A stretch of 64,000 bases of DNA, from positions 22,818 to 86,817 of the IMG/VR virus record IMGVR_UViG_3300013126_000015. One strand, 5' to 3'. Below are positions 1-55,516 of this stretch, in pieces. Position numbers and translations under genes: made by a program. The notes under the pieces are model-generated. The model ran no database searches. It was given only the letters and a program-made list of their open reading frames with translations, and was not told the origin of the DNA. Every line of letters starts with the position of its first letter. The first letter of the stretch is position 1. The DNA is from a virus (Duplodnaviria; Heunggongvirae; Uroviricota; Caudoviricetes).

Positions 1-22
1 TATTCTAGTATTAAATTTATCA

Positions 23-241
23 ATGAAACCAACTTATAAAGATTTAACAACACCGAGTAGATACAGAACAAAATTAGTAGACAAAGCTAAACACGTATTA
101 TGGGAATCTGATAACGACGTTTTTGAATTATCAGTAAAAATCTGGGATGCTATTCATGAATATGAAACCAGACAAACAATGCATGGATTAGGTGGATGTG
201 TTAAAAAAACATTTAAAGAATTGATTGACAATACAAAATAA
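23..241 (+). CDS. hypothetical early protein (72 aa)
   Basis: ATG ORF at window start; followed by consensus early promoter for next gene. Confidence 0.45.
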   Translation: MKPTYKDLTTPSRYRTKLVDKAKHVLWESDNDVFELSVKIWDAIHEYETRQTMHGLGGCVKKTFKELIDNTK

Positions 242-252
242 TCCTGTATACT
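225..252 (+). promoter_or_regulatory. sigma70-type early promoter (TTGACA 225-230, 16-nt spacer, TATACT 247-252)
   Basis: read directly; SD AGGAGA and ATG 282 downstream. Confidence 0.6.
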
Positions 253-281
253 ATCCCCATAATCAAATATAGGAGAACATT

Positions 282-524
282 ATGAAAGTTTCACAAAAAA
301 ATCTTAACGCATTAAGACAATTTCAAATGTATGATAATGTCTTATTGACATCCGAAGAATCTGAAGAATGTGGTTATATTAGCAACATTCTCATGAATAC
401 ACATGATGAAATCGTGTTTGAAGTAACAGTTCCTGTTTATTCCATAATAGTAGGTGAAAGTATTACAATAAAAAGAAAAGTTCATCCATATAGCAAATCG
501 TGTGAAATGACTAGATTAAGTTAG
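282..524 (+). CDS. hypothetical early protein (80 aa)
   Basis: ATG with AGGAGAA SD 8 nt upstream. Confidence 0.5.
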   Translation: MKVSQKNLNALRQFQMYDNVLLTSEESEECGYISNILMNTHDEIVFEVTVPVYSIIVGESITIKRKVHPYSKSCEMTRLS

Positions 525-533
525 GAGAACATC

Positions 534-695
534 ATGCACTTCATATTATTTTTAATCATGGTCTGGATGATCATTGATTATTGTGAAAAACATACAATTG
601 CTGATTTTGTTGGTGGTGTTTTTAAATTTATCATTTCAGCAATGGTCGGTGGTATTATGATTATATTCATATTAGCTGCATATGCCGGTCATTAA
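534..695 (+). CDS. small hydrophobic membrane peptide (53 aa, MHFILFLIMVWMII...)
   Basis: unlisted ORF; SD TTAGGAGAAC before ATG 534; stop TAA 693-695. Confidence 0.4.
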   Translation: MHFILFLIMVWMIIDYCEKHTIADFVGGVFKFIISAMVGGIMIIFILAAYAGH

Positions 696-700
696 AATAC

Positions 701-728
701 TTGACAAATCAAAATAATCCTGTATACT
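701..728 (+). promoter_or_regulatory. sigma70-type early promoter (TTGACA 701-706, TATACT 723-728)
   Basis: 16-nt spacer; shared motif atcctgTATACTat. Confidence 0.6.
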
Positions 729-759
729 ATACACCATCTTAAATCAATTGGAGAACAAC

Positions 760-1014
760 ATGAAAACCTTAACCTTCAAACAATTGATATTAATTTTGGT
801 GAATGCGTATGCCATTGAATTTGATTGTAACTTGGTATATCCATCTGTAAATGAAGATGAATCATTCGAAGTAACAATTGATGATTATGAATTGTATTTT
901 ACTGAAAATGATGTAAAATCAATTGAAGTATATGAAGCTGGTTATCGTATCAGATTCGAGGTAACATCTGGTGCAGTTTATGTTATTCAACCTTTGGATA
1001 TAATGAAATTTTAA
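760..1014 (+). CDS. hypothetical early protein (84 aa); ORF track start 748 is TTG, ATG at 760 preferred
   Basis: GGAGAA SD before ATG 760. Confidence 0.5.
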   Translation: MKTLTFKQLILILVNAYAIEFDCNLVYPSVNEDESFEVTIDDYELYFTENDVKSIEVYEAGYRIRFEVTSGAVYVIQPLDIMKF

Positions 1015-1042
1015 TTGACAAATCAAAATAAAGGTGTATACT
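1015..1042 (+). promoter_or_regulatory. sigma70-type early promoter (TTGACA 1015-1020, TATACT 1037-1042)
   Basis: 16-nt spacer, AGGAGAA SD then ATG 1076. Confidence 0.6.
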
Positions 1043-1075
1043 ATACACCATACAAAATCAATTAGGAGAACTGTC

Positions 1076-1482
1076 ATGGCATACATCAATCAAGAACAAA
1101 AAAAGTAATTGCCCCTAAAATTAAAGCATTATGCAAAGAATATGGGGTTAACGGTACATTGTCAATTGACCATCATTCCACCATTGTATTGACGATAGCA
1201 TCAGGTAAAATTGATTTTATCGGTAACTATAACAAAGTCGTTGGGGGAAAACATCATGAAAACTTTACCCCAGTAACGGATGATATGAGTATCAATCCAT
1301 ATTGGTTTCATGAACATTTCGACGGTGCTGCAAAAGAATTTCTAACCAAAGCAATTAAAGAATTAAAAGGTGAAGGATGGTTCGATAACTCTGACATCAT
1401 GACCGATTATTTCCATGTTAAACATTATGTTAATGTTAAAGTAGGTAAATGGAATCGTCCTTACGTCTTGACAAATAATTAA
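1076..1482 (+). CDS. hypothetical protein; ATG 1076 frame stops after 10 codons, 107-aa ORF continues in -1 frame (candidate -1 frameshift at A_AAA_AAG 1099-1105, or homopolymer indel)
   Basis: ATG 1076 with SD; the -1 frame (1159..1482) has no ATG or SD of its own. Confidence 0.35.
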
Positions 1483-1495
1483 AATCCTGTATACT
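1468..1495 (+). promoter_or_regulatory. sigma70-type early promoter (TTGACA 1468-1473, TATACT 1490-1495)
   Basis: 16-nt spacer. Confidence 0.6.
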
Positions 1496-1527
1496 ATTAC
1501 CATCAAATAAACAAAGTGGTGACCGAA

Positions 1528-1722
1528 ATGTTAAATCTATTATTAGTGTACATACTTGGTTTCATTATAATGTATATCTGGGTTAGTGTATTGGATTTAG
1601 CATTACTTGCAACCTCTGAAGGAACAATGCATATCCCACAAAGTAGCAGTGTTATATATGCAATGAGATGGCCTAAAATTACATTTAGATTGTTGCAAGT
1701 GTGGTTATCAATAGAATTTTAA
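1528..1722 (+). CDS. small hydrophobic membrane protein (64 aa); track start 1516 is GTG
   Basis: ATG 1528 with GGTGA SD; strongly hydrophobic N-terminal half. Confidence 0.45.
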   Translation: MLNLLLVYILGFIIMYIWVSVLDLALLATSEGTMHIPQSSSVIYAMRWPKITFRLLQVWLSIEF

Positions 1723-1723
1723 C

Positions 1724-1751
1724 TTGACATTTTCTAAATTTGTATTATAAT
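1724..1751 (+). promoter_or_regulatory. sigma70-type early promoter (TTGACA 1724-1729, TATAAT 1746-1751)
   Basis: 16-nt spacer. Confidence 0.55.
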
Positions 1752-1783
1752 AAACTCACTTTCAAACACACAGGACAAAAATC

Positions 1784-2032
1784 ATGAGAACCATAACCTT
1801 CGAAGAATTTGCAAAATTGGTTGATGATGCAACCGCTGTAATTATCGATCATAATGCAGTAGTTTATCCAGTCGTTGAAGATGATGAAGTAATCGTCGAA
1901 GATGATAACTTCTCAGTCACATTCGATGAAGATGCTGGATCATTCACAATTCTGGATGATGGCAGTATTGAAATTGTAATGGTTGATGAAACATTCAACA
2001 TTCAAGTTTTACAAGTTAAAGTATTAGAATAA
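1784..2032 (+). CDS. hypothetical acidic protein (82 aa)
   Basis: ATG ORF after promoter. Confidence 0.5.
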   Translation: MRTITFEEFAKLVDDATAVIIDHNAVVYPVVEDDEVIVEDDNFSVTFDEDAGSFTILDDGSIEIVMVDETFNIQVLQVKVLE

Positions 2033-2077
2033 ACTGAATTCCCCTATAATAAATATTATTTTATGGGGGAAATAAAA

Positions 2078-2230
2078 ATGCTAACAATATGGTCTCTAAT
2101 AACAATCGCAACAATTCTGTTTATTGTCCTTGGACATAAATTACATATGCAAGGATTTGTAACAATTGGATCAGTAATGATGCTGGTAGGATGTTTACAA
2201 ATAATAGCAGAATTTGCCGCACTACTATAA
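2078..2230 (+). CDS. small hydrophobic membrane peptide (50 aa)
   Basis: unlisted ORF MLTIWSLITIATILFIVLG...; GGGGGA SD. Confidence 0.35.
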   Translation: MLTIWSLITIATILFIVLGHKLHMQGFVTIGSVMMLVGCLQIIAEFAALL

Positions 2231-2241
2231 GGAATACAGTC

Positions 2242-2466
2242 ATGTTAAAAGATAAAAGAGTCACCATCCTGTACCAAGGTCATTATGCCACAGGTACAGT
2301 AGTGAAGTCAATTCATACTGAAACAATCGGTATTGAAGAAGATGTCGAAAAGGTTATTCTGCATAAAGTAAAACTTGACAAACCATTGCAAGTAATCTGG
2401 GATGATGTTCAAAAATTTGTAACCAGTGTTCTGGTTGATCATTCAAGAGTTGAAGTAATTTCTTGA
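2242..2466 (+). CDS. hypothetical protein (74 aa); track ORF 2191 trimmed to ATG 2242
   Basis: AAGGA SD before ATG 2242. Confidence 0.45.
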   Translation: MLKDKRVTILYQGHYATGTVVKSIHTETIGIEEDVEKVILHKVKLDKPLQVIWDDVQKFVTSVLVDHSRVEVIS

Positions 2467-2491
2467 CAAACTATCGGGGATAGGTTATACT
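2463..2491 (+). promoter_or_regulatory. sigma70-type early promoter (TTGACA 2463-2468, TATACT 2486-2491) with inverted repeat GGGGATAG/CTATCCCC flanking the -10
   Basis: 17-nt spacer; palindrome 2476-2498. Confidence 0.6.
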
Positions 2492-2515
2492 ATCCCCATA
2501 CTTTAGGAGAACATC

Positions 2516-2683
2516 ATGAAAACATTTGAAGTAAAAATGACAATAGTTCTAACAGATGATGCTAAACATCCAAGAACATGGTTTGCAGACGTTGTTAACG
2601 CAAATCTGTTTGATAAAGAAGGTGAACATATATTGGATTATGATGTTAACGAGGTAGAAAATAAAGTTGATGATACAAACTAG
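2516..2683 (+). CDS. hypothetical small protein (55 aa)
   Basis: unlisted ORF; TTAGGAGAACATC ATG. Confidence 0.4.
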   Translation: MKTFEVKMTIVLTDDAKHPRTWFADVVNANLFDKEGEHILDYDVNEVENKVDDTN

Positions 2684-2880
2684 GAGAATATCAATATAAT
2701 ATCAATGCCTGAATTTCTGGAGCAATACCAAAATGTTAAGTAATTATAATAAAATGGTATTAAGGTGTCAATATGAACCATTACCAAACATTCGTATAAA
2801 ATCATCCTATCCACATTACAGAATGATGGACAAAGGATACAAATCTAAAAAACATTCTAAACTAATAGTAAGGTACTAAT

Positions 2881-3147
2881 ATGAAATCGATTGATGTTGT
2901 AAATGCTATCCTGAACAATGGTTATTCAAATGATGAATTGAATAATATCGCAATGGCAATAAAACATGCCCGACACAATCAAGCCATTGTTAATAAGTTT
3001 ACTCTTAAAGTCGGTCAAAATGTACAATTCAATCATGCCGGTATTACCCGTCACGGTACAATCAAAAAAATCAATCGAACCACAATGACTGTTTCAACTG
3101 ATGCCGGATTGTGGAAAGTCCCAGCTAACATGCTAACATTGGTATAA
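2881..3147 (+). CDS. hypothetical protein (88 aa)
   Basis: ATG ORF with AAGG SD. Confidence 0.5.
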   Translation: MKSIDVVNAILNNGYSNDELNNIAMAIKHARHNQAIVNKFTLKVGQNVQFNHAGITRHGTIKKINRTTMTVSTDAGLWKVPANMLTLV

Positions 3148-3150
3148 ATC

Positions 3151-3555
3151 ATGTCTCCAATTCAAACAGCTCAAAATATCGCAATCAGATTGTTTTTTTC
3201 CAATGTAAATGGCGATGAAAATGATGCTTATAATCATTTATATGAATGTGATAATCCTTACACCACTTACATCGATGATCATTTCGTTGGTAAACCATTT
3301 CAACCTTGGCAACCATTCGAATTTCGTACCGTAGCCGATATTCAAGAATATGTCGAAAATCTGGTCAATGACATTTTCAGATCAACCAATGAACCAGATG
3401 ATGGTGAAGAAGTCGGTGAAAATGCCCCAGAATCATCCACCAGTGATGCGGTTGAATGTCCTGAATGTCATAGCACCACTATAACAAAGAAAGGTCGTGA
3501 TGGCAATCGTCAACGGTTTAAATGTAAAGATTGTGGAAAACATTTCTATCAATAA
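3151..3555 (+). CDS. hypothetical protein with C-terminal transposase-like zinc-ribbon (CPECHS...CKDCGKHF)
   Basis: C4 zinc-ribbon motif resembling IS1/IS1595 transposase N-terminal DNA-binding domains. Confidence 0.45.
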   Translation: MSPIQTAQNIAIRLFFSNVNGDENDAYNHLYECDNPYTTYIDDHFVGKPFQPWQPFEFRTVADIQEYVENLVNDIFRSTNEPDDGEEVGENAPESSTSDAVECPECHSTTITKKGRDGNRQRFKCKDCGKHFYQ

Positions 3556-3559
3556 TCTC

Positions 3560-3587
3560 TTGACATTCTGAAATAATCCTGTATCAT
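3560..3587 (+). promoter_or_regulatory. sigma70-type early promoter (TTGACA 3560-3565, TATCAT 3582-3587)
   Basis: 16-nt spacer. Confidence 0.5.
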
Positions 3588-3620
3588 ATAACCATCTTCA
3601 AACGATACAGGATTCAAATC

Positions 3621-3812
3621 ATGAACACCAAACAGGCATACACATTCATTGTATTCATTATCAATAATGGATACGTTCAATATCGAACTGATACCAATGC
3701 TACCGGTTCATCACCAACAACACATCATAACAAAACATCACAACAAGTGATCGATGAATATCTCGAATCATTTAGAAAATATTATCATGATGTAGAATAC
3801 GAAATCATATAG
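3621..3812 (+). CDS. hypothetical protein (63 aa)
   Basis: ATG ORF. Confidence 0.45.
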   Translation: MNTKQAYTFIVFIINNGYVQYRTDTNATGSSPTTHHNKTSQQVIDEYLESFRKYYHDVEYEII

Positions 3813-3942
3813 GGTTCCCGCTGCGCTATCTCTATATGATACCTGTATGGTCGAGGGTTCCCGCTGCGCTATCTAGCGATGCTCAATTGTGGTAGGTTCC
3901 CGCTGCGCTATCTAGCGATGCTCAATTGTGGTAGGTTCCCGC
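3811..3942. repeat. GC-rich tandem direct repeat: GGTTCCCGCTGCGCTATCT x3 plus partial 4th; two exact 39/40-bp units 3855-3894 and 3895-3933
   Basis: read directly; lies between stop of gene 3621..3812 and promoter at 3952. Confidence 0.8.
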
Positions 3943-3951
3943 AAATATCTC

Positions 3952-3979
3952 TTGACATTCTCAAATTTTCAGGTATCAT
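3952..3979 (+). promoter_or_regulatory. sigma70-type early promoter (TTGACA 3952-3957, TATCAT 3974-3979)
   Basis: 16-nt spacer. Confidence 0.5.
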
Positions 3980-4011
3980 ATACACATATTCAAATCAGAT
4001 GAGATTAGATC

Positions 4012-4269
4012 ATGTCTACTAAAAAATATATCGACCTAGCCGATCAAATCAAAAATCAACTCAACATTGCATTCAAACGTAGAGATGCTCCAATGTTCAT
4101 CTACTATCAACAAATGCAAAATGATCCTAATATCATTGCCTTCGCATCATATGAAACATTCAAGGGTTCATGGGCATATCAAGAATGGTATAAAAAGAAT
4201 AGACCAGCTATCGATGAATTTGTAAAGAATAATTATAACCGTTATCAAATTATATGGAGCGCAACATAA
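4012..4269 (+). CDS. hypothetical protein (85 aa)
   Basis: ATG ORF. Confidence 0.5.
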   Translation: MSTKKYIDLADQIKNQLNIAFKRRDAPMFIYYQQMQNDPNIIAFASYETFKGSWAYQEWYKKNRPAIDEFVKNNYNRYQIIWSAT

Positions 4270-54791: not shown

Positions 54792-54970
54792 CTTAAAATA
54801 AAGTAAGTGTAATCTCGCTGGTTATCAAATTGTATCACATCTTTTAGAATTTTGCAATGGAATTCTTTTTCGAATTCTTTAGTAGATGGTTCGGTGCCAT
54901 GTGTATTTTCATACCATTCATAGGCACTGAACACTTCATTACTTCTGAATAGTAACTCATGTTTTTTCAT
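54782..54970 (-). CDS. family II small protein (...DYTYFILRWC)
   Basis: C-terminal motif. Confidence 0.45.
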   Translation of the reverse strand: MKKHELLFRSNEVFSAYEWYENTHGTEPSTKEFEKEFHCKILKDVIQFDNQRDYTYFILRWC

Positions 54971-55266
54971 TATTCACCAAATTTTAACACAAATAATGTT
55001 CTATCCTGTTCTTTTTTAAAGTAAAAACGAAAATATCCATCCTCATCAATGCCATGATAGAATCTATCTTTAAATGATTCTTCGCACCATAAGATTGATT
55101 CTACCAATTGATCATGTGAGTCATGCATACTTGTAAAATTTGATCTTACGTAATAAATGAATGCTGTTTCGTGAGTGTTATCTAGTTGGCCAACTGATTT
55201 CACTATTACCGGAGTCCAGTCATATCTATTTCTCATTGAAAAAATCGATGCTGATGGGATTGACAT
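54970..55266 (-). CDS. family II small protein (...DRTLFVLKFGE); track ORF trimmed to internal ATG 55266
   Basis: AT-rich low-complexity N-terminal extension in track ORF is implausible. Confidence 0.4.
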   Translation of the reverse strand: MSIPSASIFSMRNRYDWTPVIVKSVGQLDNTHETAFIYYVRSNFTSMHDSHDQLVESILWCEESFKDRFYHGIDEDGYFRFYFKKEQDRTLFVLKFGE

Positions 55267-55330
55267 AGGTTGTACACCCACGATGTCATTGGCAATTGAT
55301 TGTGGTATTATCTTTCTTAATAATGGTATA

Positions 55331-55516
55331 TTAATCTCTGTCACGGTGCTCATGATGGTGATGTCGGTTATGATGCTGATTATGATGGTATTGGTATTGT
55401 GGATAATACCTTGGGTAATATACAGGTTGAACTGGGTAATAATAGCTGTCGTATCCACGGTAATTGTGGGCACATCCAACTAAAAATAATAACGATAATA
55501 CTAATAATTTATTCAT
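55331..55516 (-). CDS. His/Tyr/Pro-rich lipoprotein (61 aa; lipobox LVGC)
   Basis: MNKLLVLSLLFLVGCA then YYYPVQPVYYPRYYP...HHNRHHHHEH. Confidence 0.5.
   Translation of the reverse strand: MNKLLVLSLLFLVGCAHNYRGYDSYYYPVQPVYYPRYYPQYQYHHNQHHNRHHHHEHRDRD

Follow-up and report, generated by a model that had tools for sequence, protein, structure and literature searches.

A one-base contraction of a lysine-codon A tract as the probable origin of a split LPD29-like early gene in an uncultivated phage

The heptamer A_AAA_AAG is the most shift-prone motif known in Escherichia coli, as AAA and AAG are decoded there by the same tRNA-Lys (PMC5009743). In the established case of E. coli dnaX, the heptamer lies close to a zero-frame stop, with an SD-like stimulator on its 5′ side and a strong stem-loop on its 3′ side; each of the two products has a function, and related bacteria retain the site (PMC5009743). 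Bare heptamers raise frameshifting only 2–10-fold over a background of ~0.055%, as measured in one E. coli reporter system (PMC4066793). ‘Compensatory' frameshifting of indels is a recognized class (PMC5009743), exemplified by herpesvirus TK G-run mutants and pDEST17 one-base-deletion constructs, in which an indel lies in or beside a homopolymer and the shift-prone run at the lesion lets some ribosomes remake the exact original protein (PMC5009743; PMC1851650). In an over-expressed mRNA, one-base-deletion constructs were rescued to levels of 25–60% at a C_AAA_AAA located some 20 codons after the start; RNA polymerase slippage was excluded, and there was no convincing stimulator (PMC1851650). 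In transcriptional slippage, which occurs on runs of A or T and is described for Thermus dnaX, Shigella spa13 and endosymbiont poly(A) tracts, an A tract is located at the break and the insertion of one A into the mRNA restores the frame; efficient slippage by bacterial RNA polymerase occurs at runs of about nine or more (PMC5009743).

The locus described here occupies positions 1076–1482 (+ strand) of the window, the whole 64,000-nucleotide stretch of DNA that was analysed. The window derives from an uncultivated phage of 32.6% GC, encoding helicases, a methyltransferase and NAMPT, which has no close cultured relative; no tRNA gene was detected anywhere in its 64 kb. A near-consensus sigma-70-type promoter (TTGACA, 16 nt, TATACT; 1015–1042, + strand, 11/12 matches) precedes a Shine-Dalgarno (SD) sequence, AGGAGA (1064–1069), which is separated by the 6-nt spacer actgtc from an ATG at 1076. 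The reading frame then runs ATG GCA TAC ATC AAT CAA GAA CAA AAA AAG TAA, such that the zero-frame product (1076–1108, stop at 1106–1108) consists of the ten residues MAYINQEQKK with a mass of 1.25 kDa. An A7 homopolymer at 1098–1104, in the setting CATCAATCAAGAAC-A(n)-GTAATTGCCCC, contributes to the heptamer A_AAA_AAG at 1099–1105, which is in slippery phase with the ATG. The heptamer is identical to that of dnaX, has the same phase and, as in dnaX, a zero-frame stop nearby. The preliminary description of this DNA, which noted the good SD, the ATG, the short peptide ending at TAA, the A7 run, the heptamer with its adjoining stop and the likeness to dnaX, is borne out by the sequence in all of these respects. 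It was also right that the −1 frame ends at 1482 (TAA at 1480–1482) and that the first start-type codon found in this frame is the TTG at 1159–1161, although the frame does not open at 1063, as positions 1063–1065 are a TAG, but at 1066. A −1 slip that re-reads G1105 joins the ten codons not to the 107-aa ORF called from TTG 1159, with a product of ~14.8 kDa, as had been proposed, but to 125 codons of the −1 frame (1105–1482, reading VIAPKIKALCKEYG...VLTNN before the TAA). The fused protein, MAYINQEQKK-VIAPKIKALCKEYG..., therefore comprises 135 aa (15.47 kDa), and its junction-spanning peptides read MAYINQEQKKVIAP.... Addition of an eighth A to the tract in silico gives a 135-aa protein identical to the −1 product.

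Profile comparison aligned residues 1–135 of the fused protein with positions 1–128 of the 129 in PHROG 10415 (E = 1.6e-35), and about 90 homologues of 111–149 aa in a large protein database cover the query from residue 1. The nearest homologue, P0002, displays 67% identity and starts MAYINQEQKKVIAPKV, its residues 1–10 corresponding to the window's 10-codon ORF. Across the family M1, A2 and K9 are nearly invariant, as is K17. The match between the 10-codon ORF and the first ten residues of P0002, combined with the full-length alignment to PHROG 10415, indicates that the split of the gene between two frames is certainly more than chance; judged by the same homology, the 10-codon ORF encodes the genuine N-terminus that the gene had in its ancestral form. 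Two distant homologues, P0088 and P0091 (E about 1e-21), pass the gathering cut-off of Pfam LPD29 (PF18847, 27 bits) at residues 5–82, with scores of 41 and 39 bits, respectively, while the window protein had no Pfam match at E ≤ 10 and did not reach the PF18847 gathering score. The definition of LPD29 comes from polyvalent proteins that phages and conjugative elements encode, and the domain also occurs in solo forms (PMC5512222); an anti-defence role of the domain is a prediction only (bioRxiv 10.64898/2026.07.27.740549). The window gene resembles LPD29/PHROG 10415 solo proteins in its location in an early or leading-type region (solo LPDs, PMC5512222), but differs from them in that its protein lies below every Pfam threshold and the gene is frame-broken in this lineage. 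Sequence comparison thus identifies the locus as an orthologue of a small phage early gene of the LPD29-like/PHROG 10415 type, the function of which is possibly anti-defence. No paralogue was found elsewhere in the 64-kb window. The AlphaFold model of P0002 is of high confidence (pLDDT 93.6, pTM 0.85) and displays a helix (residues 6–22), two strands (25–32 and 36–44) and two further helices (48–59 and 85–99). A Foldseek search of this model against the PDB gave no match (best E = 0.28, TM < 0.3), consistent with the view that the LPD29-like/PHROG 10415 family may have a fold that is so far without structural characterization.

The conservation of the frame break was assessed in the DNA of relatives taken from IMG/VR, JGI metagenomes and the contig index, which together provided 38 distinct N-terminal sequences. 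In all 38 the gene is in a single frame, and the break is likewise absent from three checked cultured-phage records and from the about 90 database homologues. The cultured phages Melnitz-3 and vB_Kpn_K54_rec4, for each of which two features are listed, appeared to contain split genes, but each has one intact CDS and the second feature reflects overlapping neighbour annotations. The relatives use the two lysine codons interchangeably at this site (AAG AAA, AAA AAG, AAG AAG and AAA AAA), and neither the break nor the heptamer is phylogenetically conserved in this set of 38. Two of the relatives, L016 and L017, have a gene order in common with the window, which identifies their loci as orthologous. 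The SD arrangement of the window gene is also found in its orthologues, L016 having caGGAGAataca ATG. At the site of the break L016, the closest syntenic orthologue, reads CAA AAA AAA GTA ATC GCC, and thus contains an in-frame A8, the ancestral-type state. Deletion of one A from L016 in silico produces CAA AAA AAG TAA TC. The heptamer, its phase and the adjoining stop are thus automatic, because the loss of one A from CAA AAA AAA GTA A yields all three. On this comparison the A_AAA_AAG heptamer is a by-product of the deletion and not an independent design feature. The alternative offered in the preliminary description, that an indel underlies the break, is supported by these data, as the A8 of L016 lies exactly at the window's A7 and restoring the base yields the full conserved protein of 135 aa.

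The word AAAAAAG is present in 39 copies in the window compared with about 24 expected; it is common in this genome and the heptamer is not special in itself. Within ORFs of at least 80 aa there are 29 copies, with only two in slippery phase (4878, + strand; 29483, − strand) and 17 and 10 in the other phases. The rarity of A_AAA_AAG in slippery phase may reflect AAA/AAG codon preference or the avoidance of shift-prone sites.

Stimulators of frameshifting were sought as a stem-loop or pseudoknot 5–9 nt 3′ of the site, and as an SD-like sequence 10–14 nt 5′ of it. No SD-like motif is present between the ATG and the heptamer (1076–1099). The look for a downstream stem-loop, which had been suggested at the outset, revealed no significant structure, the minimum free energy fold of the 92 nt from the heptamer onwards (1099–1190) being no better than those of shuffled sequences (z = +0.36). 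The only suitably placed stem, GCCCC (1111–1115) paired with GGGGU (1144–1148), has 5 bp enclosing a loop of 28 nt (−6.9 kcal/mol). L016, in which the gene is in frame, contains this stem as well, and conserved Ala-Pro and Gly-Val codons determine four of the five pairs. The GCACC/GGUGU version in L017 seemed compensatory, but the one free pair of the stem displays no covariation in 15 relatives (6 paired versus 4.6 expected, P = 0.26), and on this result and the codon constraint the stem was rejected as a stimulator. The locus differs from dnaX, which has both an upstream and a downstream stimulator where the window site has neither, and in which two functional proteins are made from a conserved site, whereas in the window the site is unconserved and the zero-frame product is simply the 10-residue N-terminus of the same protein. 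From its sequence, no plausible separate role for the 10-residue peptide is apparent. The site thus displays the slippery heptamer, of the form X_XXY_YYZ, in zero-frame phase, but it lacks the conservation, the stimulatory element and the meaningful products that define a programmed site, and it qualifies as a homopolymer indel allele.

The most probable explanation is that an accessory early gene has undergone a homopolymer indel specific to this lineage, accompanied at most by leaky slippage that is not under selection. In this model a 5′ A8 tract, coding for the conserved Gln-Lys-Lys, would have contracted to A7 in this lineage, most likely through a real and recent mutation in the phage population. 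The loss of a single base would move codon 11 and all that follow out of frame and, at the same time, create the in-phase A_AAA_AAG directly before the TAA. The A7 allele would be expected to stop nearly all ribosomes after ten codons, resulting in a knocked-down or inactive allele of what would be a dispensable accessory gene. The full-length 135-aa protein, if made, would arise through non-programmed −1 slippage of both tRNA-Lys on A_AAA_AAG, which would restore exactly the ancestral sequence without the site being a selected recoding signal. Slippage of RNA polymerase on A7 would be a less likely route to the 135-aa product. The window is similar to the known transcriptional systems in having an A tract at the break, where one A inserted into the mRNA would restore the frame, but efficient runs contain about nine residues, and a run of seven would thus be a poor substrate for the polymerase. 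By analogy, the closest known behaviour is the compensatory frameshifting of an indel, a known and ordinary phenomenon. In the window, as in the herpesvirus TK and pDEST17 examples, the indel is in a homopolymer, and the sequence likewise offers a shift-prone run at the lesion through which the exact original protein could be remade; those cases, however, have a measured product, whereas slippage in the window is a prediction from its sequence, and there is no sign of an advantage to the allele. If leaky slippage occurs here at all, unselected ‘compensatory' expression of the 135-aa protein is plausible, in an amount that would depend on the host and its tRNA-Lys set.

One of the two alternatives in the preliminary description was a programmed −1 frameshift; if selected, A_AAA_AAG and the TAA would be kept so that the LPD29-like protein is maintained at a low, regulated level. 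This reading draws on a perfect, in-phase heptamer with the zero-frame stop directly 3′, on a motif that is the most shift-prone in E. coli (PMC5009743), on a −1 product that is a conserved protein, and on expression signals that remain intact, as the promoter, SD, ATG and whole downstream frame are all undamaged in the A7 allele. It does not survive comparison with the 38 relatives and ~90 homologues, in which the break is absent, nor the observation that each of the ‘designed-looking' features follows from a single deletion in an A8 tract. The fold statistics (z = +0.36), the lack of an internal SD in 1076–1099 and the lack of covariation provide no stimulator, the zero-frame product is a 10-residue peptide, and the break is known in one lineage only, the sequences of which are 99.9% identical and have thus had no evolutionary time to show retention. 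A programmed site is accordingly very unlikely. It is also highly improbable that, together with leaky −1 slippage, the A7/A8 tract at codons 8–10 provides a reversible contingency switch in which A7 is kept for a low-dosage advantage in some hosts; if this were true, phage subpopulations would toggle an LPD29-like, putatively anti-defence, early gene between full and trace expression. A further possibility is that the downstream part is expressed alone as a functional truncated protein, either from TTG 1159 (107 aa) or by termination-reinitiation at a near-cognate codon such as the ATT at 1108–1110. Gene callers in two pipelines selected this TTG, and the TAA overlaps the ATT in the −1 frame, but the TTG lacks a real SD, being preceded only by GGGG 12–15 nt upstream. 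Moreover, TTG 1159 encodes residue 29 of the fused protein, within the first β-strand of the fold, and the 107-aa form would lose the predicted helix 6–22, part of strand 25–32, K9 and K17. No homologue begins near residue 29, and even the shortest (111–117 aa) cover 91–99% of the query. As both fold elements and near-invariant lysines are missing, the model suggests that the 107-aa product of TTG 1159 would probably lack function, and independent expression of the downstream part is, overall, hard to credit.

Returning to the indel, the nature of the deletion is informed by a second assembly. The window's own gene call, P0001 (107 aa), is located on a 102,445-bp JGI contig; the only other member of its cluster, P0093, is encoded on a Logan contig from SRR11049220. 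The Logan contig, L015, is 99.92% identical to window positions 1–3885 (3,885 bp, no gaps), differing by three SNPs at 886, 1248 and 3154, and contains the same A7 and TAA, although the two assemblies possibly share reads. Exact look-up of P0001 and of neighbouring genes retrieved only this one Logan contig; no relative above ~57% identity was found in the IMG/VR and JGI metagenome collection, and megablast against cultured phages gave no match to the window. Inside ORFs of at least 80 aa, 50 other runs of A≥7 are intact, and ORFs of up to 838 aa are open. A scan for homopolymers in which a ±1 indel lengthens ORFs returned 16 candidates. When the ORFs at the five most plausible of these 16 sites were compared with PHROG profiles, the results were near-complete single-gene matches or unrelated neighbours and no split genes, leading to the rejection of an error-prone assembly. 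The ~50 unbroken A≥7 runs and the candidate pairs that are not split genes show that the homopolymer error rate of the assembly is low.

If the A7 is an artefact, the true sequence contains A8 within a plain 135-aa ORF, one A having gone missing during base-calling or in the consensus. This is consistent with the A8 version being translated to exactly the expected protein, with the A8 of the nearest orthologue and with the perfectly intact downstream frame; in addition, the two assemblies may share reads, a further independent copy was not found in the searches, and a systematic homopolymer miscall could lie behind the A7 in both. Conversely, two different assemblers generated consensus sequences that are three SNPs apart and both contain A7; the other A≥7 runs in ORFs are unbroken, and none of the candidate pairs proved to be a split gene. 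The lack of secondary damage in the downstream frame fits a very recent mutation, but it would equally fit an artefact or an allele that is tolerated and expressed. Because A7 recurs in a second assembly and no other gene of the contig is broken, we infer that the deletion is better explained by a real mutation than by a read artefact, and that an artefactual A7 is unlikely. Thus, of the sequencing indel envisaged in the preliminary description, the indel is upheld, while its attribution to error is less likely than a real mutation.

The main significance of the locus concerns its annotation. There is little doubt that the 107-aa TTG-start call (P0001/P0093) is wrong, and the proper annotation would be a frameshifted 135-aa LPD29-like gene, or the corrected gene if A8 is the true sequence. 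In an AT-rich genome the loss of one base from a Lys-Lys A-run that precedes a G generates a textbook A_AAA_AAG. As one deletion can often mimic such a site, a frame break with a textbook heptamer does little to demonstrate programmed recoding unless the heptamer is conserved. A real and leaky allele would provide one more example of compensatory slippage and leave current understanding unchanged.

The gene sits in a + strand block of small ORFs, each behind a near-consensus sigma-70-type promoter. Within positions 1–4200, eight such promoters (TTGACA, 16–17 nt, TATACT/TATAAT/TATCAT; 11–12 of 12 matches) start at 225, 701, 1015, 1468, 1724, 2463, 3560 and 3952 on the + strand, and these sequences suggest that 225–3979 is an early region transcribed by host RNAP, in which each gene has its own promoter. 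The promoter of the frameshifted gene is overlapped at its −10 hexamer by a perfect palindrome, GGTGTATA-C-TATACACC, at 1033–1049. This element was scored in the scan as a minus-strand terminator-like hairpin and, on its sequence, it could be an operator or an opposite-strand terminator. A similar hairpin at 2475–2498 overlaps the promoter at 2463. There is also a short tandem duplication (~3854–4022), in which the ORF 3879–4022 reads MLNCGRFPLRYLA-MLNCGRFPQ...; L015 ends inside this repeat, and its last 75 nt (L015 3916–3990) are only 83% identical to the window.

Elsewhere in the window, a 169-aa TTG-start ORF at 54970–55479 (− strand) matches no more than a small internal part (positions 34–105 of 444) of the major-head-protein family PHROG 138, and lies just downstream of a 316-aa ORF that matches the C-terminal ends of several PHROGs of unknown function. 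Judged by these matches, the 169-aa ORF may encode either a domain-sharing protein or a fragment. Homopolymers are distributed asymmetrically on the + strand, with 135 runs of T6–T8 versus 57 of A6–A8, an asymmetry that matches the switch in gene orientation from the + strand (1 to ~5.3 kb) to mostly the − strand beyond ~5.6 kb.
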